Source: Rubrivivax sp. (GTDB lineage: Bacteria > Pseudomonadota > Gammaproteobacteria > Burkholderiales > Burkholderiaceae_C). Taken from it: DNA of 64,000 bases. Location: positions 80,557 to 144,556 of the forward strand of contig JAHBZS010000008.1 in the NCBI GenBank assembly GCA_019635285.1, given 5' to 3'. Both the position numbers and the translations under genes were made by a program. Under the pieces are notes generated by a model, which saw only the letters and a program-made list of their open reading frames with translations, was not told the origin of the DNA and made no database searches. Positions 53,015 through 61,754 of the stretch are shown here, piece by piece; position 1 is the first letter of the stretch; the number at the start of each line of letters is the position of its first letter.

Positions 53015-53568
53015 TCCTGGAACTCCGGCGGCAGCGGGCGCAGCGCCGGCCAGGCGGCAAAGAAGAAGTAGCGCAGCCCGGCGGACAGGAAGCCCACCGG
53101 AATGGCCAGCTGGATCGGCCAGATCGGCATGTCGAAGGCCTGCGCGCGCAGCCCCGCCTGCATCGACGACTGCACGTAGACCCAGCCGTACCAGGCCACG
53201 CCGCAGAAGAACAGGCCGGTGACGACGTCGGCGATGCGGTTCATCGTCGGGCCGAAGGCGGCCGGCACCCAGCCGAAGCCCAGCCGCGGCAGCAGGTGGC
53301 TGCCGGTGGCGGTGGCCACGCCGACGCCGCAGAAGCTGCCGATCACCAGCGCATAGACGCACATCTTCTGCGCCGCGAAGATGCCCGGCGAGCCTTTCAG
53401 GTCGAAAGCCTTGTAGATCGGGCCCAGCAGCTCACGACCGGCCACGTCGAGGATCAGCACGACGGCGATGAAGCCGAAGGCGGCGACCGCGATCAGGCAC
53501 TCGACGCGGTGCCAGCCGTCGACCAGGCGCCGCGCGCCGGCCGGGGCCGGCGCGGCCACCGAACTCAT
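53011..53568 (-). CDS. dctQ: TRAP transporter small permease
   Basis: Four TM helices, between dctP and dctM, with overlaps at both ends. Confidence 0.82.
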   Translation of the reverse strand: MSSVAAPAPAGARRLVDGWHRVECLIAVAAFGFIAVVLILDVAGRELLGPIYKAFDLKGSPGIFAAQKMCVYALVIGSFCGVGVATATGSHLLPRLGFGWVPAAFGPTMNRIADVVTGLFFCGVAWYGWVYVQSSMQAGLRAQAFDMPIWPIQLAIPVGFLSAGLRYFFFAAWPALRPLPPEFQE

Positions 53569-54587
53569 TTGGTGCAGGCCTTGCGTCCGGCTTCCATGGC
53601 CGCGTAGAAGGCCGCCGAGTCACCGCCGGTTTCCTTGACGATCTGCGGATACACCGGCTCCATGGCCTTGCGCCAGGCGTCGCGCTGCTCCTGCGTGGCC
53701 ACCGGGGCCTGGCCGCCGGCCTGCGTCATCATGCCCCACAGCGTGTCCTCGAAGCCGCGCACCTCGGCGCGCATCTTCGGCGCCGGGTTGCGCTCGGCGG
53801 TACGGTCGAGTGCCTCGCGAAGCTCCTTGGGCAGCTTGTCGTAGGTGGCCTTGTTCATCAGGGTCAGGGCCGGCGAGTCGTAGGCCTTGACGCGCGAGCC
53901 CACCGTGGCCACTTTCGTCAGGCCCGACGGCAGGGCATAGGTGATGGTCGTCAGCACCACGTCGGCCATGCCGGTCTGGAAGGCCGGGATCCATTCCGGC
54001 AGGCCCAGCGGGTTGACGCTGGCGCCCATCGAGGTGAAGAACAGCGCCTGCGTCTTGTTGGCATAGATGGCGGCCTTGGCGCCCTTCAGGTCGGCGGGCG
54101 CCATGAACGGCTTCTTGCCGAACATGTCGATCGAGCCGACCTCGGTCCAGCCCAGGAACTGCACGCCCTTCTTGGCAAAAGCCTCGGCCACCGGCTTGGC
54201 CATGTGGTTGTCGAGCACGCAGTCGAATTCCGCGGTGTTGCGGAAGTAGAAGGGCATCAGCAGCAGCGCCACTTCGGGCACCACCAGCGCCGCCGAGCCG
54301 GCCGAGAAGCCGCCCAGGTCGATGCGGCCGCGAGCCACCTGCTGCACGGTGTCCTGCTCGCTGCCCAGCTGCGAGGCGAAGAAGGTCTGGATCTTCAGCG
54401 CGCCCTTGCTTTCTTCGTCGACGTCCTTGGCGAAGCGCTCGATCTGCATCACCCACGGGTTGCCCTTGGGCGGCGCGCCGCTGGTGTAGCGCAGCTCGAT
54501 CGGCTTGGGTTGCGCCAGTGCAGGCGCTTGCAGGAGCAGCAGCGATGCGCCCAGGGCCAGCGCGGACAGGATGGGGTTGGGTTTCAT
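53565..54587 (-). CDS. dctP: TRAP solute-binding protein, DctP family
   Basis: Signal peptide; SQLGSEQDTVQQVARGRID, LLMPFYF, DLKG, AFQTGMAD. ATG at 54587. Confidence 0.88.
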   Translation of the reverse strand: MKPNPILSALALGASLLLLQAPALAQPKPIELRYTSGAPPKGNPWVMQIERFAKDVDEESKGALKIQTFFASQLGSEQDTVQQVARGRIDLGGFSAGSAALVVPEVALLLMPFYFRNTAEFDCVLDNHMAKPVAEAFAKKGVQFLGWTEVGSIDMFGKKPFMAPADLKGAKAAIYANKTQALFFTSMGASVNPLGLPEWIPAFQTGMADVVLTTITYALPSGLTKVATVGSRVKAYDSPALTLMNKATYDKLPKELREALDRTAERNPAPKMRAEVRGFEDTLWGMMTQAGGQAPVATQEQRDAWRKAMEPVYPQIVKETGGDSAAFYAAMEAGRKACTK

Positions 54588-54730
54588 GCAACGGCCTCCG
54601 GCAACGTGAACAAGGGCAGCGCGTAATGCGTTGCCCTCGTACCGATGATGGGGTGGCGGCATGGGGGCGACCATCCAGATTGGCCCTAGTGCGTGCACTC
54701 CTGCACGGGCCGGCCTGATACCGTCGCGGC

Positions 54731-56020
54731 ATGACCCACCCAGACCTCGTCGACCCCTGGATCGGCGGCCCCGGCGCCAAGGGCTACCCGCATGCCGCCG
54801 CGCCGCTGCGCCGCTCGTCGATCGCCGCGCAGCACTGGAACGTGCTGCGCGGCGACCTGCCGCTGCCTGCGGCGGTGATCCGCCGGCGCGCGCTGCAGGG
54901 CAACCTGCAGTGGATGCAGCAGTACGCGCGCGCACAGGGCGTGGAGCTGGCGCCGCACGGCAAGACGCCGATGTCGCCGCAGATCTTCGCCGCGCAGCTG
55001 GCTGCCGGCGCCTGGGGCATCACCTTTGCCAACGTCACGCAGGCGCGGCTCGGCCTGCTGGCCGGCGTGTCGCGCGGCCTCATCGCCAACCAGGTGCTGG
55101 CTGCGGACGACCTGACGGCGATCGCCGCGCTGTTGCGCGAGCAGGCCGGCGCGCGGCTGTTGTTCCTGGTCGACTCGGAGGCGCAGCTCGAGCTGATCGA
55201 GGCCTGGTGGCGCGCCCAGCCGCAGCCGCCCGCGGCCTTCGAAGTGCTGCTGGAGCTGGGCCTGGACGGCGGCCGCACCGGCTGCCGCGGCCACGAGCCG
55301 GCGCTGGCGCTGGCGCGGGGCCTGCACGCCAGCCCGGCGGTGCAGCTGGCCGGCATCGAATGCTACGAAGGCCTGTGGGCCAAGGGCGACAGCGAGGCCG
55401 ACCGTGCCCTGGCGCAAAGGCTGATGCAGCGCGTGCAGGCGCTGGCGCAGCAGTGCGAGCGCGAGCAGCTCTTCGACACCGACGAGCTGTTGTTCAGCGC
55501 CGGCGGCTCGGCGATCTTCGACCTGGTGGCGCCCGGGCTCAAGCCGGCCCTGGCGCGGCCGACGCGCGGCCTGCTGCGCTCGGGTTGTTATGTCACGCAC
55601 GACCATGGCAGCTACAAGCGCTACATGGCGGCGATGGATGGGCGCCTGTCCTGCAGCCATGGACTGCAGGCCGCGCTGGAGGTCTGGACGCGGGTGCAGT
55701 CCTGCCCCGAGCCCGGCCTGGCCTTGCTGACGGCGGGCAAGCGCGACGTGTCCTACGACATCGAGATGCCGATCCCCGCGTGGTGGTTTGCGCCGGGGCA
55801 GGCTGCACCCGAGCCGGCGCCCGCCGACTGGAAGGTCAGCGCGATGAACGACCAGCATGCCTACCTGCGCTTCGACGCCGCGGCAGCACGCACGCCGCAG
55901 GTGGGCGAGCTGGTCGGGCTGGGCATCTCGCACCCATGCACCACCTTCGACAAGTGGCGCTGGATGGCCATCGTCGACGACGACTACGACGTGGTCGACG
56001 CCATCGTCACCTACTTCTGA
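54731..56020 (+). CDS. PLP fold-type III D-amino-acid deaminase/aldolase (DSD1/D-serine dehydratase-like)
   Basis: LAPHGKTPM (PLP lysine), GGRTGCR, LRSGCYVTHD, MNDQH, ISHPCTTFDKW. Confidence 0.85.
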   Translation: MTHPDLVDPWIGGPGAKGYPHAAAPLRRSSIAAQHWNVLRGDLPLPAAVIRRRALQGNLQWMQQYARAQGVELAPHGKTPMSPQIFAAQLAAGAWGITFANVTQARLGLLAGVSRGLIANQVLAADDLTAIAALLREQAGARLLFLVDSEAQLELIEAWWRAQPQPPAAFEVLLELGLDGGRTGCRGHEPALALARGLHASPAVQLAGIECYEGLWAKGDSEADRALAQRLMQRVQALAQQCEREQLFDTDELLFSAGGSAIFDLVAPGLKPALARPTRGLLRSGCYVTHDHGSYKRYMAAMDGRLSCSHGLQAALEVWTRVQSCPEPGLALLTAGKRDVSYDIEMPIPAWWFAPGQAAPEPAPADWKVSAMNDQHAYLRFDAAAARTPQVGELVGLGISHPCTTFDKWRWMAIVDDDYDVVDAIVTYF

Positions 56021-56026
56021 GCGCGC

Positions 56027-57016
56027 CTACATCTGCAGCACGATCTTGCCGGCGACCTGGCGCGCGGCCAGCGCACGGTAGGCCTCCCGGGCCTGCTCGA
56101 AGGCGAAGCGCGCGCCGATGGTCGGCCGGAACAGGCCCTGCGCGGCCAGCGCCTCGACCGCGCGGCGGTTCTCCTCGCCGCGTGCCGGGTCGCGGCGGCC
56201 GTATTCGCCGGCGCGCACGCCCACCACCGAGAAGCCCTTGATCAGCGCCAGGTTGCTGGGCAAGGTGGCGATGCGCCCGCCGGCAAAGCCGATGACCAGC
56301 AGGCGGCCGCCCCAGGCCATGCAGTGCACCGAGGCGTCGAACAGGTCGCCGCCCACGGGGTCGAAGACCACATCGGCGCCACGCCCGTCGGTCAGCCGCT
56401 TGACCTCGCCCGCCAGCCCGGCCGCACCCTCGTGCACCTGCAGCAAGTGGTCGGCACCGGCCGCATGCGCCGCCTGCAGCTTGTGCAGCGAGCTGGCGGT
56501 GGCGATGACGGTCGCGCCCAGGTGGTGGCCGAGCTGCACCGCGGCCACGCCGGTGCCGCCGCTGGCGCCGTGCACCAGCAGCGTCTCGCCGCGCTGCAGC
56601 GCGCCGCGCCGCACCAGCGCCACCCAGGCGGTCATCGCGGTGACGCCGTAGGCCGCGCCTTCGGCGTAGTCGAAGCCCGGCGGCACCGGGCGCAGCGCCG
56701 ACTCCGGGGCCACCAGATGCTCGGTGAAGGCGCCGCCATGGGCGTTGAAGCAGACGCGGTCGCCGGGCCGCCAGCGGCTGACCTGCGCGCCGACGGACTG
56801 CACCTCGCCGGCGCACTCCATGCCGGCGACAAAAGGCAACGGCGGCCTGTGCTGGTACTTGCCCTGGGTCATCAGCAGGTCGGGAAAGTTCAGCGCGGCG
56901 GCGCGCACGCGCAGCTGCACGTCCTGCGGGCCGAGCGCCGGCAGCGGCCAGTCGACCCGTTGCAGGCCCGACAGGTCGTCGCTCAGTTCGACGCAGGCCC
57001 AGGCTCGGTTCTTCAT
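56027..57016 (-). CDS. NADPH:quinone oxidoreductase (MDR/zeta-crystallin family)
   Basis: ALNFPDLL, VHGASGGTG, FDPVGG, IGFAGG, GKIVL. Confidence 0.9.
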   Translation of the reverse strand: MKNRAWACVELSDDLSGLQRVDWPLPALGPQDVQLRVRAAALNFPDLLMTQGKYQHRPPLPFVAGMECAGEVQSVGAQVSRWRPGDRVCFNAHGGAFTEHLVAPESALRPVPPGFDYAEGAAYGVTAMTAWVALVRRGALQRGETLLVHGASGGTGVAAVQLGHHLGATVIATASSLHKLQAAHAAGADHLLQVHEGAAGLAGEVKRLTDGRGADVVFDPVGGDLFDASVHCMAWGGRLLVIGFAGGRIATLPSNLALIKGFSVVGVRAGEYGRRDPARGEENRRAVEALAAQGLFRPTIGARFAFEQAREAYRALAARQVAGKIVLQM

Positions 57017-57063: not shown

Positions 57064-58506
57064 ATGACCCCGCAAACGCCCCGTTCCGCCCTGCCCGAAC
57101 AGGGTCGCGCCACCGCGGAGGTGCTGCAGCAACTGCGCGGCTACGACCGCGACGACCCGGCCTACAAGGACGGCCGGCTGTGGAGCCTGGTGTATTACCT
57201 CGACCCGGCGCACGACGACTTCCTGGCGCAGGCCTACCAGGCCTATGCCTCGGCCAACGGCCTGAACCCCGGCGCCTTCAAGAGCCTGAAGCGCTTCGAG
57301 AGCGAAATCATCGCCGCGGCTGCCCGGCTGCAGCATGGCGGGCCCGAGACCTGCGGCGTCGTCACCTCCGGCGGCACCGAAAGCTGCCTGCTGGCGGTGA
57401 AGACCTACCGCGACCTGGCCCGCGCCACGCGGCGCGTGCGCAGTCCGGAGATGATCGTGCCGGCCACCGCGCACGTCGCCTGGTTCAAGGCCAGCGAATA
57501 TTTCGGCGTCCGGCTGCGCCAGCTGCCGCTGGACGACCGGCTGCATGCCGATGTGTCCAAGCTGGAGGCGATGATCAACCGCCGCACGGTGATGATCCTG
57601 GGCTCGGCGCCCGAGTATCCGCACGGCAGCATCGACCCGATCGCGGCGATGGGCGAGATCGCGCAGCGCCATGGCGTGCCGCTGCACGTGGACGCCTGCG
57701 TCGGCGGCTTCATCCTGCCCTTCATGGAAATGAACGGCATCGCGCTGCCGACCTGGGACTACCGCGTGCCGGGGGTCACGTCGATCTCGGCCGACCTGCA
57801 CAAGTACGGCTTCGCGGCCAAAGGCGCGTCGACCCTCACCTACCGCCACCTGGAGCTGATGAAGCACCAGATGTTCGTGCAGGCCGACTGGCCCGGCGGC
57901 GTGTTCGCGTCGCCGGCGCTGCTGGGCACGCGGCCCGGCGGCGCCTATGCGGCGGCCTGGGCGGCGCTGCAGCATTTCGGCGTCGACGGCTACCGCGAGC
58001 TGGCGTCGCGCACCAGCCAGGCCTTCGAGCGCATGCGTGACGGCATCGAGCGCATGCCCGAGCTGCGCGTGCTGGGCGAGCCGCTCGGCCCGCTGCTGGC
58101 CTACGGCTCGGCGACGCCGGCCGTCAACATCTTCGCCGTCGGCGACCAGATGGATGCGCGGGGCTGGCTGGTCAACCGGCTGCAGTTCCCCGACGGGCTG
58201 CACGCGATGATCACCGCGCAGCACCTGCCGGTGGTCGACGACTACCTGCGCGACCTGCGCGACGCGGTGGCCACGGTGAAGGCCGACCCGAGCCTGGCCG
58301 ACAAGGGCCATGCCGCCACCTACGGCATGATGGCCCACCTGCCGCTGCGCGGCATGGTCCGACACAAGGTGCTGCAGCTGTTTGCCGACAGCTACCGCGC
58401 CGGCGCCGCGCCGCTGAGCCTGGACGCGCCGGACGGTGCGCACGCGCCGAAGCCGCTGCTCGAGCGTGTCGCCGCGCGCTACGTGGCTTGGCGCCAGCGG
58501 CGCTAG
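57064..58506 (+). CDS. Group II PLP enzyme, sphingosine-1-phosphate lyase-like
   Basis: GRLWSLVY, TSGGTES, PATAHVAW.KA, HVDACVGGF, SADLHKYG.A.KG.S, GTRPGG. Confidence 0.78.
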   Translation: MTPQTPRSALPEQGRATAEVLQQLRGYDRDDPAYKDGRLWSLVYYLDPAHDDFLAQAYQAYASANGLNPGAFKSLKRFESEIIAAAARLQHGGPETCGVVTSGGTESCLLAVKTYRDLARATRRVRSPEMIVPATAHVAWFKASEYFGVRLRQLPLDDRLHADVSKLEAMINRRTVMILGSAPEYPHGSIDPIAAMGEIAQRHGVPLHVDACVGGFILPFMEMNGIALPTWDYRVPGVTSISADLHKYGFAAKGASTLTYRHLELMKHQMFVQADWPGGVFASPALLGTRPGGAYAAAWAALQHFGVDGYRELASRTSQAFERMRDGIERMPELRVLGEPLGPLLAYGSATPAVNIFAVGDQMDARGWLVNRLQFPDGLHAMITAQHLPVVDDYLRDLRDAVATVKADPSLADKGHAATYGMMAHLPLRGMVRHKVLQLFADSYRAGAAPLSLDAPDGAHAPKPLLERVAARYVAWRQRR

Positions 58507-58510
58507 GGTC

Positions 58511-59239
58511 TCAGCCGCTGCACGTCTGCAGCGCACCGTCTGCATAGCGCGCCAGCTCGAACACCTCGGCATAGGGCGCGTCCAGCTCCAGCGCCGCGGC
58601 CGCGTCGCGGTTCAACTGCAGCACACGCGCATCGAAGCCGTGGCCGCGCGTGCGCAGGTTGCGCTGCTGCTGCGAGCGGTGATGGCGCAGCAGTTGGCCC
58701 TTCCAGCGCGCCAGCTCGTCGTCGAAGGCGGTGTACAGGTCGCGGCGCATCTGCAGCGTCTTGGCGTCCTGGTTCAGGCACGCCCACAGCGTCAGCCGTT
58801 CGCGGGCGGCCAGCGCATGGAAGCGCTCGTGCGTGCGGCGGTGCGTGGCATTGCTGTCGTTGCCGTGCGGCAGGAACACCAGCTGCGGTTGCACCGCCCG
58901 CAGGTGCGCGCGCAACCGCTCGTCGTCCTGGGCGGCGTCGGCGGCGTGCTGCCACAGGCGCAGGAACCGGCAGCGCTCGGCGGGCAGGCCGAAGAAGGCG
59001 CAGCTGGCCCGCTGCTCGGCTTCGCGCAGCGCCACCTTCTGCTCGGTGCCGGTCGCCCCCTCGAAGCCGTCGTCGACGCCGTTGGCCCCGCCGGTGAGCA
59101 CGGCCAGATGAAGTGCATGGCCCTGTTGCTGCAACTGCCGCAAGCTCACGCCGATGGCATCGAAGTCGTCCGGGTGGGGCGCCAGCACCAGCACCCGCAG
59201 GTGCTGCGGCCAAGGCGGATCGAGCAGCGACCGGGCCAT
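58511..59239 (-). CDS. PIG-L/LmbE-family deacetylase
   Basis: VLAPHPDD motif, R.AEQRASC..G. ATG at 59239. Confidence 0.8.
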   Translation of the reverse strand: MARSLLDPPWPQHLRVLVLAPHPDDFDAIGVSLRQLQQQGHALHLAVLTGGANGVDDGFEGATGTEQKVALREAEQRASCAFFGLPAERCRFLRLWQHAADAAQDDERLRAHLRAVQPQLVFLPHGNDSNATHRRTHERFHALAARERLTLWACLNQDAKTLQMRRDLYTAFDDELARWKGQLLRHHRSQQQRNLRTRGHGFDARVLQLNRDAAAALELDAPYAEVFELARYADGALQTCSG

Positions 59240-59302
59240 CGGGGTCAGGAGGCGGCGCGGCGCCGGCCGCGCCGCGCCCACGGTTTGGCCGGGCCGATCG
59301 AA

Positions 59303-59326
59303 GATAATGCCGAGCAAGCGCTTGCC
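59303..59326 (+). promoter_or_regulatory. TetR-type operator (KstR2-like) just downstream of a -10 candidate
   Basis: GATAAT at 59303-59308. AGCAAGCGCTTGCC (59313-59326) contains a perfect 12-bp palindrome and resembles AnCAAGnnCTTGnT. Confidence 0.6.
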
Positions 59327-59350
59327 AAAATTCAACCGGAGCCTGTGACC

Positions 59351-60514
59351 ATGATCGAACGCACGCTGTTCAATGCCGACCACGAAGCCTTCCGCGACAG
59401 CTTCGCGCGCTTCATCGACAAGGAGATCGCACCCTACCACGCCGAGTGGGAAGAGCAGGGCTACGTAGCCCGCGAGGTCTGGCGCAAGGCCGGCGCCAAC
59501 GGCTTCCTGTGCATGACCATGCCCGAGGCCTACGGCGGCGCCGCTGCCGACAAGCTGTATTCGGTGGCGCAGATGGAGCTGCTCAGCGCCGGCAGCTACA
59601 GCGGCATCGGCTTCGGCCTGCACAACGAGATCGTCGCGCCCTACATCCTGCATTACGGCACCGAGGCGCAGAAGCAGAAGTACCTGCCCAAGCTGGCCAG
59701 CGGCGAGATGGTCGGCGCGATCGCCATGAGCGAGCCCGCCGCCGGCTCCGACCTGCAAGGCGTGAAGAGCACGGCGATCCTCAAGGGCGACCACTACCTG
59801 CTCAACGGCAGCAAGACCTTCATCACCAACGGCTGGCATGCCGACCTGGTGATCGTGGTGGCCAAGACCAACCCCGACGCCGGCGCCAAGGGCACCAGCC
59901 TGCTGCTGGTGGAGCGCGGCATGCCCGGCTTCGAGCGCGGCAAGCGGCTGAAGAAGGTGGGGCTGAAGGCGCAGGACACCTCGGAGCTGTTCTTCGACGG
60001 CGTCAAGGTGCCGGCCGAGAACCTGCTGGGCGGTGCCGACCAGCTGAACCGAGGCTTCATCTGCCTGATGGAGCAGCTGCCGTGGGAGCGCATGCAGATC
60101 GCCATCGGCGCGGTGGCCAGCATGCAGGCGACGATCGAGCAGACCATCGCCTACGTCAACGAGCGCAAGGTCTTCGGCCAGGCCGTGGCCGCCTACCAGA
60201 ACACGCGCTGGAAGCTGGCCGAATTGCAGACCGAGGCGCAGGTGGCGCGCGTCTTCGTCGACAAGTGCCTGGAGCTGCTGCTGCAGGACAAGCTGGACAC
60301 GGCCACCGCGTCGATGGCCAAGTACTGGTGCTCGGACCTGCAGAACAAGGTCATCGACGAATGCGTGCAGCTGTTCGGCGGCTACGGCTACATGTGGGAG
60401 TACCCGGTGGCGCGCGCCTGGGCGGATGCGCGCGTGCAGCGCATCTACGGCGGCACCAACGAGATCATGAAGGAAGTCATCAGCCGCTCGCTCGGGCTGG
60501 GCGCGCGCAAGTGA
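59351..60514 (+). CDS. Acyl-CoA dehydrogenase (long-chain-like)
   Basis: AMSEPAAGSD, NGSKTFITNG, QLFGGYGY, IYGGTNEIMK. Confidence 0.95.
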   Translation: MIERTLFNADHEAFRDSFARFIDKEIAPYHAEWEEQGYVAREVWRKAGANGFLCMTMPEAYGGAAADKLYSVAQMELLSAGSYSGIGFGLHNEIVAPYILHYGTEAQKQKYLPKLASGEMVGAIAMSEPAAGSDLQGVKSTAILKGDHYLLNGSKTFITNGWHADLVIVVAKTNPDAGAKGTSLLLVERGMPGFERGKRLKKVGLKAQDTSELFFDGVKVPAENLLGGADQLNRGFICLMEQLPWERMQIAIGAVASMQATIEQTIAYVNERKVFGQAVAAYQNTRWKLAELQTEAQVARVFVDKCLELLLQDKLDTATASMAKYWCSDLQNKVIDECVQLFGGYGYMWEYPVARAWADARVQRIYGGTNEIMKEVISRSLGLGARK

Positions 60515-61164
60515 CCGAGGCCGCCGCGGCGGTACCGGCGCGGCGCCCGCGCGGCCGCCCGCGCAAGCCGCCCGAGGCGCAGGACGAGGGCAACCGCCGG
60601 CAGGAGCTGCTGCATGCCGCGGCGCGGCTGTTTCGCCAGAAGGGCTTTGCCGCCACCACCACGCGCGACATCGCCGCCGCGGCGGGCATGCGCTCGGGCT
60701 CGCCCTTCTATCACTTCGAGAACAAGGCGGCGCTGTTGTTCGCGGTGATGGAGCAGGGCATGCGCGCCGCGCTGCAGATCCAGGCCACCGCGCTGCAGGC
60801 CGTGCCGCCCGAAGCCGCGCCCGACGCGCGGCTGCGCACGCTGGTGCGCGCGCATTTCGACGTGCTGCTCGGCGCCGGCAGCGACTTCATTCCGGTGATG
60901 CTCTATGAATGGCGCTCGCTCAGCGCGGCACAGCGCGCCGGCATCGCCAGGCTGCAGCGCCAATACGAAGACGCCTGGGCCGACACGCTGCAGGCGCTGG
61001 CCGCTGCGGGGCGGGTGCAGGCCGACGCGCACATCGCGCGGCTGATGATGCTGGGTGCGCTGAACTGGTCGGTGCAGTGGTACAAGCCGAAGAAGGGCGC
61101 GTCGCTGGACGACTTGTGCGACCAGGCGATGCAGCTCTTCGCACCGCAAAGGAGACCTCGATGA
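60511..61164 (+). CDS. TetR-family regulator (KstR2/PaaR-like C-terminal domain)
   Basis: GTG start overlapping the ACAD stop. HTH LLHAAARLFRQKGFAATTTRDIAAAAGM..YHF; GALNW..QWY. Confidence 0.9.
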   Translation: MTEAAAAVPARRPRGRPRKPPEAQDEGNRRQELLHAAARLFRQKGFAATTTRDIAAAAGMRSGSPFYHFENKAALLFAVMEQGMRAALQIQATALQAVPPEAAPDARLRTLVRAHFDVLLGAGSDFIPVMLYEWRSLSAAQRAGIARLQRQYEDAWADTLQALAAAGRVQADAHIARLMMLGALNWSVQWYKPKKGASLDDLCDQAMQLFAPQRRPR

Positions 61165-61754
61165 ACGACCGTGCCACTTTCACCCGCATGGACCAGAGCA
61201 CCGCGCAGGACTGGGCGCTGATCGCCGGCGAGTTCCGGCCCTACAGCCAGCAGCTGCCGGACCGCATCCTGGCGCACCTGAAGCTGCTGGATGGCGACTA
61301 CGGCGGCTTCCCCATCGACCGCTACAGCCACTGCCTGCAGACCGCGACGCTGGCGCTGCGCGACGGCCGCGACGAGGAGTACGTGGTCTGCGCGCTGCTG
61401 CACGACATCGGCGACACGCTGGGCTGCTACAACCATCCGGACATCGCCGCGGCGATCCTCAAGCCCTTCGTCAGCGAAGACAACCTGTGGATGGTGCAGA
61501 ACCACGGCATCTTCCAGGGCTACAACTTTTTCCACCACCTGGGCATGAACCGCGACATGCGCGACATGTTCAAGGGCCACGCCTGCTACGCGCGCACCGA
61601 GGAATTCATCGCGCTGTACGACAACCCGGCCTTCGACGCCAAGGCCGAGACGCTGCCCATCGGCGAGTTCGAGCCGATGCTGCGGCGCGTGTTCGCGCAG
61701 CCGCGCAACACCATCTACAAGGCCGTGCTGGAAGAAGCGGGCGACGCCGTCTGA
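61161..61754 (+). CDS. HD-domain protein, PhnZ/TmpB-like metal-ligand pattern
   Basis: SHCLQTA, LLHDIG, YNHPD, QNHG, LYDNP. ATGA overlap with tetR. Confidence 0.8.
   Translation: MNDRATFTRMDQSTAQDWALIAGEFRPYSQQLPDRILAHLKLLDGDYGGFPIDRYSHCLQTATLALRDGRDEEYVVCALLHDIGDTLGCYNHPDIAAAILKPFVSEDNLWMVQNHGIFQGYNFFHHLGMNRDMRDMFKGHACYARTEEFIALYDNPAFDAKAETLPIGEFEPMLRRVFAQPRNTIYKAVLEEAGDAV

Follow-up and report, generated by a model that had tools for sequence, protein, structure and literature searches.

What could bring an acyl-CoA dehydrogenase (ACAD), a TetR-family repressor and an HD-domain protein together in one operon, and what would the HD protein do there? The question is raised by a locus of Rubrivivax sp. 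lying within the window, that is, the whole stretch of 64,000 nucleotides that was analysed. A preliminary description, made from the sequence alone, had read this locus as a translationally coupled operon under a KstR2-like operator and as a possible new diiron oxygenase pathway. The account that we favour, with moderate confidence, is that of an operon for the catabolism of fatty acids that is lineage-specific and self-repressed, and in which the HD protein would act as an O2-dependent diiron oxygenase.

Translation of the stretch gives three intact open reading frames on the + strand, in the order ACAD, TetR and HD. The first (59351-60514, + strand; 387 aa; P0003) encodes an LCAD-like acyl-CoA dehydrogenase, and a GGAG read from the sequence as its ribosome-binding site lies 9 nt upstream of the start codon (59338-59341, + strand). 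The second (60511-61164, + strand; 217 aa; P0001) has a GTG start and encodes an AtuR-like repressor, while the third (61161-61754, + strand; 197 aa; P0002) encodes a PhnZ/TmpB-like HD protein, a probable diiron oxygenase. The stop codon of ACAD shares a GTGA with the start of TetR at 60511-60514, and that of TetR shares an ATGA with the start of HD at 61161-61164. These overlaps had been proposed to couple the three genes, which translation bears out, and the junctions are kept in sister genomes: the first appears as TGATG in G014, G185 and G189, and the second as ATGA, as here, in G014 and G185. One translationally coupled unit is thus supported. Nevertheless, four-base gene overlaps are frequent in bacterial operons, and for this reason the junctions show little beyond co-transcription.

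The sequence in front of the ACAD gene can be read as a promoter that carries an operator. A GATAAT at 59303-59308 (+ strand) is the -10-like hexamer of the putative operon promoter, and hexamers resembling TAAACT or TAGACT are found in the same region of sister operons. A promoter scanner returned no full sigma-70 match on the + strand of this region, because the -35 is poor; its sole match is on the - strand and belongs to the divergent gene. The CAAG-cg-CTTG palindrome noted earlier is indeed present at 59315-59324 (CAAGCGCTTG), inside a longer perfect palindrome of 12 bp, GCAAGCGCTTGC, at 59314-59325, 26 nt upstream of the ACAD start. It had also been said to cover the predicted transcription start site; the palindrome does come directly after the -10-like hexamer, and the position of the start site itself is plausible, as a prediction. 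The bare pattern CAAGNNCTTG is not rare, with one found against 0.61 expected per window, but the 12-mer AGCAAGCGCTTG occurs a single time in 4.9 Mb, inside this promoter region of about 110 bp and directly 3′ of the GATAAT hexamer.

The palindrome GCAAGCGCTTGC is contained in a putative AtuR-type operator, GCCGAGCAAGCGCTTGCC (59309-59326, no strand assigned), which agrees with the pattern ACCAAGC-N4-GCTTGGT at a regulated promoter. This sequence is identical at 14 of 18 positions, including a contiguous 12-mer, to the site ACCAAGCAAGCGCTTGGT that lies beside atuA/atuR in three Pseudomonas genomes and that has been validated by EMSA in strain OST1909 (bioRxiv 10.1101/2025.09.24.678253). As a scan of the genome itself with the AtuR 18-mer at 14 or more matches found 26 sites against 33 expected, which is chance level, the weight of the match comes from its position and its conservation. 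In effect, AAGC-N4-GCTT is kept in the sister operons of G014, G185 and G189, is absent in G016, whose operon is without TetR, and is also found upstream of the TetR orthologues in G082 and G085; in G082, AAGCAAGTGCTTG lies 72 nt upstream of the cluster that the orthologue heads. The four central bases differ in G014 and G189, which leaves the exact binding register uncertain. The regulon scan that had been suggested was of little help, since CAAGNNCTTG is too degenerate (79 sites in this genome) and the 18-mer stays at chance level; neither gave a second convincing site in the genome, and regulation therefore looks local. Overall, the palindrome is a credible TetR operator.

To which type do the regulator and its operator belong? 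The idea of a TetR operator at the promoter stands, but homology and the site itself place both in the AtuR type and not, as had been thought, in the KstR2 type. The protein consists of the Pfam domains TetR_N and TetR_C_24, as expected of an AtuR-type regulator. In G082, an orthologue of it with 63% identity stands at the head of an atu/liu-like carboxylase cluster with genes for an SDR, a carboxyltransferase, an ACAD, an enoyl-CoA hydratase and a biotin carboxylase. In each of three Pseudomonas genomes, the best homologue (35-38% identity, E 1e-33 to 1e-37, an identity low enough to allow paralogy as well as orthology with Pseudomonas AtuR) is divergent to atuA (PF07287), with ACCAAGCAAGCGCTTGGT between the genes. 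Among PDB matches, 'I2' scores E 6e-36 and 5k7f E 4e-20, as against E 5e-13 for KstR2 (4w97). The KstR2 assignment was rejected on this weak match and on the lack of any steroid catabolic gene near the operon, as the AtuR operator and the atuA context fit better. Control of an atu cluster is not indicated at this locus either, which holds no atuA or geranyl-CoA carboxylase genes and where only ACAD and HD accompany TetR in the operon. AtuR of strain OST1909 also controls a lone ACAD gene, which is induced by citronellic and decanoic acid (bioRxiv 10.1101/2025.09.24.678253).

The ACAD is, to judge from its domains and homologues, an ordinary LCAD-like enzyme. It contains all three Pfam ACAD domains (N-terminal, middle and C-terminal) at full length, among solved structures human long-chain ACAD is the closest to it (E 1.5e-121), and it reaches no NCBIfam equivalog cut-off. 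Both the ACAD and the AtuR-like regulator are ordinary; their chief use lies in predicting the inducing conditions, namely medium-chain or branched fatty acids.

The HD protein carries the H..HD..H..H..D pattern that had been ascribed to it, with H57, H81/D82, H92, H115 and D154/D159 as putative metal ligands; D154 and D159 are both candidates for the last one. In two alignments, of 22 and 42 sequences that are 34-89% identical to this protein, H57, H81, H92, H115 and D154 are invariant, D159 is invariant in the smaller and nearly so in the larger, and D82 is nearly invariant. Profile alignment with PhnZ (E 5e-15) matches the first four motifs to PhnZ H34, H58/D59, H80 and H104. An AlphaFold2 model (pLDDT 95.6) shows a PhnZ/TmpB-like fold: TmpB and PhnZ chains take the first ten places in a Foldseek search (E 5e-6 to 5e-5, TM 0.59-0.70), nothing else is found at E < 1e-4, and the next match is at E 0.03. 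The TMq is 0.52 against MIOX and about 0.14-0.36 for the HD hydrolases listed. Ligands and modelled fold, together with homologues that are fused to Fe/2OG dioxygenases (see below), suggest that the protein is most likely a diiron oxygenase that depends on O2, of the kind represented by PhnZ, TmpB and MIOX.

The phosphatase YqeK is reportedly similar in its ligand set to the six-ligand HD pattern. It is also listed as a dinuclear iron HD enzyme (PMC8177086), and the pattern alone thus does not mark an oxygenase, contrary to what had been maintained. Perhaps the HD protein is not an oxygenase but a metal-dependent phosphohydrolase, acting for instance on a CoA-derived or nucleotide phosphoester. 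Such an enzyme would suit an acyl-CoA operon if its substrate were CoA-related, hydrolases make up the majority of characterised HD proteins, and dinuclear sites with six ligands may exist among HD phosphohydrolases as well. The family is even called 'predicted HD phosphohydrolase' in databases, although this name is an automatic COG label. We consider this reading unlikely, as the only close relatives of known function are the oxygenases TmpB and PhnZ and, more distantly, MIOX, and HD hydrolases score at least 1000-fold worse.

An oxygenase of this kind could still be a true phosphonate C-P oxygenase, equivalent to PhnZ, TmpB or PhoF, that scavenges phosphorus and is loosely tied to the ACAD. 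The best family matches are in fact the PhnZ and TmpB models, but they are weak: PhnZ (TIGR03276) gives 33.8 bits against a cut-off of 214.6 and TmpB (NF049941) 29.8 bits against 300, with matches that span only residues 45-86. In the HD family, the position four residues after the fourth His is almost invariably Gln, whereas PhnZ and TmpB carry a Lys there (PhnZ Lys108), which we take to serve in phosphonate binding. Compared with PhnZ, the stretch from the HD dyad to the third His is shorter by a deletion of 11 residues. The YxxE substrate and gating loop of PhnZ, with Y24 and E27 (PMC8177086), is missing: the aligned segment is Y47-G-G-F50, in a column that is not conserved across the family. 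With the cut-offs missed, the loop missing and Lys changed to Gln, equivalence was rejected; the protein is not a PhnZ or TmpB equivalent, and an aminophosphonate substrate is unlikely.

The genomic surroundings bear on the same point. PhoF is a known fungal enzyme in which PhnY and PhnZ are fused (PMC10574752), and protist relatives of the HD protein (42-46% identity), which share its FQGY and YDxxAFD motifs, are likewise fused to GBBH/TmpA-like Fe/2OG dioxygenases with TauD-family domains. The lack of such a partner had been remarked on for this locus and is borne out: no Fe/2OG hydroxylase gene is found in the window, the genome has two TauD-family genes that lie elsewhere, on contigs C23 and C1, and no such hydroxylase is among the recurrent neighbours of HD in about 95 loci. 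A hydroxylase, phosphonate transporter or Pho-type context accompanies HD in 0 of these loci. On all these counts, a role in C-P cleavage seems very improbable.

How tightly HD is bound to fatty-acid metabolism is best judged from its distribution. The ACAD-TetR-HD trio occurs in 3 of the 61 sampled genomes of the genus (G000, G014 and G185) and in 0 of 80 orthologous loci elsewhere, and the orthologous ACAD/TetR pair adjoins HD just in a small clade of this genus. Related operons exist: G189 has ACAD-TetR-PhaJ-PhaC-PhaZ-HD, with a MaoC dehydratase in the slot after TetR, and G016 has ACAD-PhaC-hydrolase-HD, without TetR. The order FadB-HD-FadA-FadE is found in 10 loci of Sphaerotilaceae, where HD is separated from the preceding fadB by 14-96 nt and from the following fadA by 29-180 nt. 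In a quick IQ-TREE tree, the HD genes of the ACAD/PHA-type and FadB-HD-FadA architectures form separate clades. The context met with most widely consists of a divergent Crp/FNR regulator and a class II aldolase-like gene and shows no obvious connection with lipids, and about 38 of the 80 orthologous loci show none of the recurrent contexts.

These data allow another view, in which HD is a passenger: a mobile single-copy gene with an unrelated housekeeping or repair role that landed at the end of the ACAD-TetR operon, in which case co-transcription would be silent on a shared pathway. HD orthologues that are 60-80% identical across alpha-, beta- and gammaproteobacteria do sit in very different neighbourhoods, clustering of the ORFs within 5 kb in 80 loci revealed no universal neighbour, one genus holds HD genes of three clades in three contexts with one copy per genome, and the post-TetR slot of G189 is occupied by another gene. 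By contrast, a chance insertion fits less well with the finding that HD genes of two lineages, separate in the phylogeny, lie within acyl-CoA operons, where they closely adjoin fadB and fadA in one case and overlap TetR through the ATGA in the other. Run-on or fused gene calls elsewhere join HD with a thiolase, TetR or ACAD, and in Pseudomonadaceae the neighbour of HD encodes an Mpo1-like protein, whose Pfam family takes its name from a 2-hydroxy fatty acid dioxygenase. Distant ACADs near HD were discounted as stand-alone evidence, since with about 39 ACAD homologues per genome one is expected within 4 kb by chance in about 6% of cases. The passenger view is thus a serious minority possibility. 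The linkage of ACAD and HD, taken as a measure of the proposed pathway, is mixed, poor for the trio itself and better for HD lineages inside other acyl-CoA operons; a link of HD to fatty-acid metabolism is plausible but unproven. Consequently, of the possible new diiron oxygenase pathway, the six-ligand, PhnZ/TmpB-like protein stands, whereas the pathway is still a hypothesis.

Under the favoured account of a self-repressed catabolic operon, we infer the following sequence of events. The AtuR-like TetR, encoded by the middle gene, would most likely bind AAGC-N4-GCTT, the operator that follows closely on the -10 box, until fatty acids of medium chain length or with branches, or the CoA esters of these, probably release it; the LCAD-type ACAD, TetR and HD would then be expressed as a translationally coupled unit. 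The HD protein would then most likely use O2 to cleave a bond next to a hydroxylated carbon. The three-gene operon may be a trimmed form of ACAD-TetR-PhaJ-PhaC-PhaZ-HD, or the longer sister form may be an expansion. A more specific and rather speculative proposal, which we hold to be improbable as it stands, would make the HD family a new diiron oxygenase class whose members break a C-C bond beside a hydroxyl group in molecules derived from fatty acids; 2-hydroxy acids or the corresponding CoA esters, for example, might undergo oxidative decarboxylation. If true, this would provide bacteria with an alpha-oxidation shunt, dependent on O2, for chains that beta-oxidation cannot process because they are branched or hydroxylated, and it would explain the repeated capture of HD by fadBA, ACAD/AtuR, PHA and Mpo1-like operons.

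In papers of 2020 and 2025, three HD-domain diiron oxygenases have known substrates (MIOX, PhnZ and TmpB), to which the mononuclear SmaX is added (PMC8177086, PMC12186529); phosphonates are also the substrates of the PhnZ of G. maris and of the fused PhoF variants (PMC10574752). No assigned substrate was found for the HD clade, which comprises over 8000 sequences when clustered at 90% and 165 clusters when the threshold is 50% identity (E < 1e-30). The HD protein thus appears as an uncharacterised PhnZ/TmpB relative from a large orphan family that recurs inside fatty-acid operons, retaining the metal site while dropping the phosphonate-specific features. Its presence in beta-oxidation and PHA operons and the GBBH-like fusions of protists offer concrete substrate panels, and if it is an oxygenase that acts on lipids, an O2-dependent step would be added to bacterial fatty-acid catabolism.

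Compared with known systems, the regulatory part is nearest to AtuR, with which it shares the TetR_N and TetR_C_24 pair, the operator core AAGC-AAGC-GCTT at the promoter and, with the AtuR of OST1909, a stand-alone acyl-CoA dehydrogenase as the regulated gene, here a predicted one. It differs in that the TetR gene lies inside its own operon, after and overlapping ACAD, whereas Pseudomonas AtuR is divergent, as well as in the missing atuA and geranyl-CoA carboxylase genes and the identity of 35-38%. With KstR2, an actinobacterial regulator that responds to the steroid HIP-CoA, it has in common the TetR family and a detectable homology. The KstR2 operator is said to have the CAAG-NN-CTTG core in common, and KstR2 reportedly senses a CoA thioester. 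Nevertheless, 'I2', 5k7f and others score better against this TetR, and the conserved dyad of the orthologous operons, AAGC-N4-GCTT, is in the AtuR register. The ACAD shares its three-domain architecture with LCAD/ACADL, human LCAD being the best solved match, but it has no equivalog assignment and is one of about 39 homologues in the genome.

The HD protein resembles PhnZ and TmpB in its length of about 190-200 aa, its all-helical fold (TM 0.6-0.7 over about 180 residues), its ligand set and the fusion of its relatives to a TmpA/GBBH-type Fe/2OG hydroxylase. It differs from them in being only 20-25% identical and far under the family cut-offs, in lacking YxxE, in the Gln after the fourth His and the 11-residue deletion, and in being found in acyl-CoA, beta-oxidation or PHA operons instead of near hydroxylase or phosphonate genes. 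SmaO/SmaX and Mpo1 are iron enzymes that cleave alpha-hydroxy-carboxylates with O2. SmaX carries out a four-electron C-C cleavage next to a hydroxyl on an HD scaffold (PMC12186529), but it is mononuclear and without Asp ligands, whereas the HD protein described here has the full six-ligand set. In Pseudomonadaceae, an Mpo1-like gene lies directly 5′ of the HD orthologue.

The three genes stand head-to-tail on the + strand of a window of about 70% G+C: an acyl-CoA dehydrogenase (ACAD; 59351-60514, 387 aa), a TetR-family protein (60511-61164, 217 aa, GTG start) and an HD-domain protein (61161-61754, 197 aa). The ACAD/TetR junction is GTGA and the TetR/HD junction is ATGA; four-base overlaps of this type are commonplace within operons. 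As the reading frames, the overlaps and an upstream palindrome are all found as claimed, the preliminary description of the three-gene unit is accurate. The sequence GGAG can be read 9 nt 5′ of the ACAD start, and downstream the HD stop codon faces a convergent gene for an EamA-family transporter. On the other side, a promoter region of about 110 bp separates ACAD from a divergent gene (58503-59240, - strand). Its 245-aa product has the N-terminal motif LAPHPDDFD, reminiscent of PIG-L/LmbE deacetylases, with no Pfam match at E ≤0.01 and no NCBIfam match at E ≤1e-5. Further upstream are genes for a PLP-dependent decarboxylase-like protein (57064-58506, +), a zinc-type alcohol dehydrogenase (56027-57016, -) and a TRAP DctP solute-binding protein (53565-54935, -), none of which is common to the HD contexts seen elsewhere.

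Two of the three products are of known kinds. The ACAD is an ordinary one: it contains all three ACAD domains of Pfam, its closest solved relative is the human long-chain enzyme (1.5e-121), and it is among about 39 ACAD homologues in the genome. The regulator (Pfam TetR_N and TetR_C_24) was previously taken, with its operator, to be KstR2-like. This is not borne out, since KstR2 is a weak match in the PDB (5e-13) behind 'I2' (6e-36) and 5k7f (4e-20), while the atuA context and an AtuR-type site do fit. The best homologue in each of three Pseudomonas genomes (35-38% identity) is divergent to atuA, and ACCAAGCAAGCGCTTGGT lies between the two genes. AtuR, the repressor of the acyclic terpene utilisation (atu) cluster, binds ACCAAGCAAGCGCTTGGT in EMSA, is released by fatty acids, and regulates a solitary acyl-CoA dehydrogenase gene, for which citronellic and decanoic acid are inducers (2025 preprint, 10.1101/2025.09.24.678253). 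Judged by homology and site, the regulator is thus AtuR-like rather than KstR2-like. An orthologue in another family of the order (63% identical) heads an atu/liu-type cluster of SDR, carboxyltransferase, ACAD, enoyl-CoA hydratase and biotin carboxylase genes. Two further observations concern such sites. In Pseudomonas nitroreducens, the atuR/atuA intergenic region carries two of them 58 nt apart (L165, 2220 and 2278), and a single one is present in the other two Pseudomonas genomes. Locus L128 (G085:C176) has two copies of AGCAAGCGCTTGG, at 1255 and 7006, one on either side of a gene cluster for SDR, the Rieske oxygenase alpha subunit, carboxyltransferase and ACAD. A TetR orthologue is divergent to the cluster, and the whole is a possible atu-like regulon with a Rieske oxygenase among its members.

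The putative operator, GCCGAGCAAGCGCTTGCC (59309-59326), directly follows a GATAAT (59303-59308, +) in the promoter region, and its inner 12 bases form a perfect palindrome. It is identical to the AtuR site at 14 of 18 positions, a score no better than chance across the genome when taken by itself (26 seen against 33 expected). Nor is the bare motif CAAGNNCTTG rare (1 seen against 0.61 expected in the window; 79 in the genome). The 12-mer AGCAAGCGCTTG, however, occurs only once in the 4.9-Mb genome, exactly at the ACAD promoter. AAGC-N4-GCTT is kept at the same place in the aligned promoter regions of three sister operons (G014, G185 and G189), and in two other families of the order it precedes TetR orthologues by 72 and 34 nt. 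It is lost from the G016 operon, which has no TetR gene. The case for an AtuR operator is made by position, the contiguous 12-mer and conservation, not by the 14/18 score. The regulon scan that had been proposed, run on the genome at 14/18 or better, gave no second credible AtuR-type site, so regulation looks local.

The linkage between ACAD and HD is not conserved in the simple sense. No orthologue of the window ACAD or TetR lies near HD at any of 80 orthologous loci (HD 60-81% identical) from Comamonadaceae, Burkholderiaceae, Pseudomonas, Alcanivorax, Marinobacter, Sphingomonas and others. Among 61 genomes of the genus, the HD gene is present in 15 and the TetR orthologue in only 4, and the trio is limited to this genome, G014 and G185. 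HD lineages do lie, nevertheless, within other acyl-CoA operons. For instance, the six-gene operon of G189 (L159:2574-8358, G189:C19) runs, with tight junctions, through an LCAD-like ACAD, an AtuR-like TetR, a MaoC/PhaJ-like dehydratase, a class II PHA synthase-like protein (741 bits, cut-off 855), a PHA depolymerase (TIGR02240, above cut-off) and HD; its gene content indicates a route that starts with the ACAD and leads from fatty acids to medium-chain PHA, controlled by an AtuR-type repressor. The G016 operon is ACAD-PhaC-hydrolase-HD. At 10 Sphaerotilaceae loci (3 in this genus), HD is inserted between fadB, 14-96 nt upstream of it, and fadA, 29-180 nt downstream, and a long FadE-type ACAD comes next (among them L162:3918-9776 in G192, L163, L124, L019, L026, L029, L039, L040 and L041). 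Neighbourhood analysis gave no universal HD neighbour, but did give recurrent contexts, which also include an Mpo1-like gene immediately 5′ of HD in Pseudomonadaceae and, at about 18 loci in several families, pairing with a class II aldolase-like gene, where a Crp/FNR regulator usually lies divergent. Other assemblies contain run-on or fused gene calls in which HD is combined with thiolase, TetR, ACAD or aldolase II.

There is one HD copy per genome. In a quick tree, HDs of the ACAD operons (SH-aLRT 97) and of the fadBA loci fall in separate clades, and the genus has a third clade elsewhere in the tree. Together with the differing contexts, this makes HD a mobile gene that has entered acyl-CoA operons more than once. 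The pattern is suggestive and not proof, because ACADs are numerous (for a random gene, the chance of one within 4 kb is about 6%) and the recurrent contexts are absent from nearly half of the loci. A real functional tie of HD to fatty-acid or PHA metabolism is close to an even chance, and a specific role in alpha-oxidation is improbable.

The HD protein belongs to a family of >8000 proteins at 90% clustering (at 50%, 165 clusters <1e-30 and 1088 <1e-10). Most members are labelled 'predicted HD phosphohydrolase', and a hydrolase would fit that label; yet in a Foldseek search with a confident AlphaFold2 model (pLDDT 95.6), the HD hydrolases listed reach a TMq of only about 0.14-0.36, and this reading is unlikely. 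The protein is probably an oxygenase. Below 1e-4, that search returned TmpB and PhnZ chains only (TM 0.59-0.70; the next match is at E 0.03), with MIOX at a TMq of 0.52. The Pfam HD match is weak, and the best NCBIfam matches, PhnZ (33.8 bits, cut-off 214.6) and TmpB (29.8, cut-off 300), cover residues 45-86 only. A profile alignment to PhnZ (5e-15) makes the first four metal motifs coincide. In two alignments, one of 22 family members and one of 42 (34-89% identity to the window protein), H57, H81, H92, H115 and D154 are invariant, D159 is invariant in the smaller and nearly so in the larger, and D82, W110, F118 and Q119 are nearly invariant. Of the earlier interpretation, then, the kinship of HD with PhnZ and TmpB is supported by ligands and fold, while the KstR2 type is not.

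In the most likely mechanism, fatty acids or their CoA esters would release the AtuR-like repressor from an operator overlapping the promoter, and the LCAD-type dehydrogenase, the repressor and the HD protein would be made from one coupled message. HD, most likely through a diiron site, would use O2 to cleave a bond adjoining a hydroxylated carbon in a non-phosphonate substrate. New here are the assignment of the regulator to the AtuR type, the longer sister operon with PHA genes, the placement of HD between fadB and fadA, and the fusions to GBBH-like domains.

Compared with PhnZ, the HD protein has an 11-residue deletion, and four residues after the fourth His it carries Gln in place of the Lys of PhnZ and TmpB. 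That Lys has a role in phosphonate binding. In place of YxxE, the loop in PhnZ and TmpB (PMC8177086), the HD protein has Y47-G-G-F50, which is not conserved across the HD family. As of 2025, the HD oxygenases in the literature are only MIOX, PhnZ, TmpB and the mononuclear SmaX (PMC12186529), and PhoF is a fused fungal PhnY-PhnZ (PMC10574752). Among genes of the PhnZ/TmpB kind, HD is an uncharacterised variant. Its relatives at 42-46% identity share the FQGY and YDxxAFD motifs and are C-terminal domains behind a TauD-family dioxygenase of the GBBH/TmpA type. Fusions of a GBBH/TmpA-like Fe/2OG dioxygenase with HD include P0146, P0215, P0229 and P0273, and two fusion clusters include protist sequences (Dracoamoeba, Eutreptiella). 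The best argument for oxygenase chemistry is that such fusions repeat the hydroxylate-then-cleave logic of PhnY/PhnZ and TmpA/TmpB.
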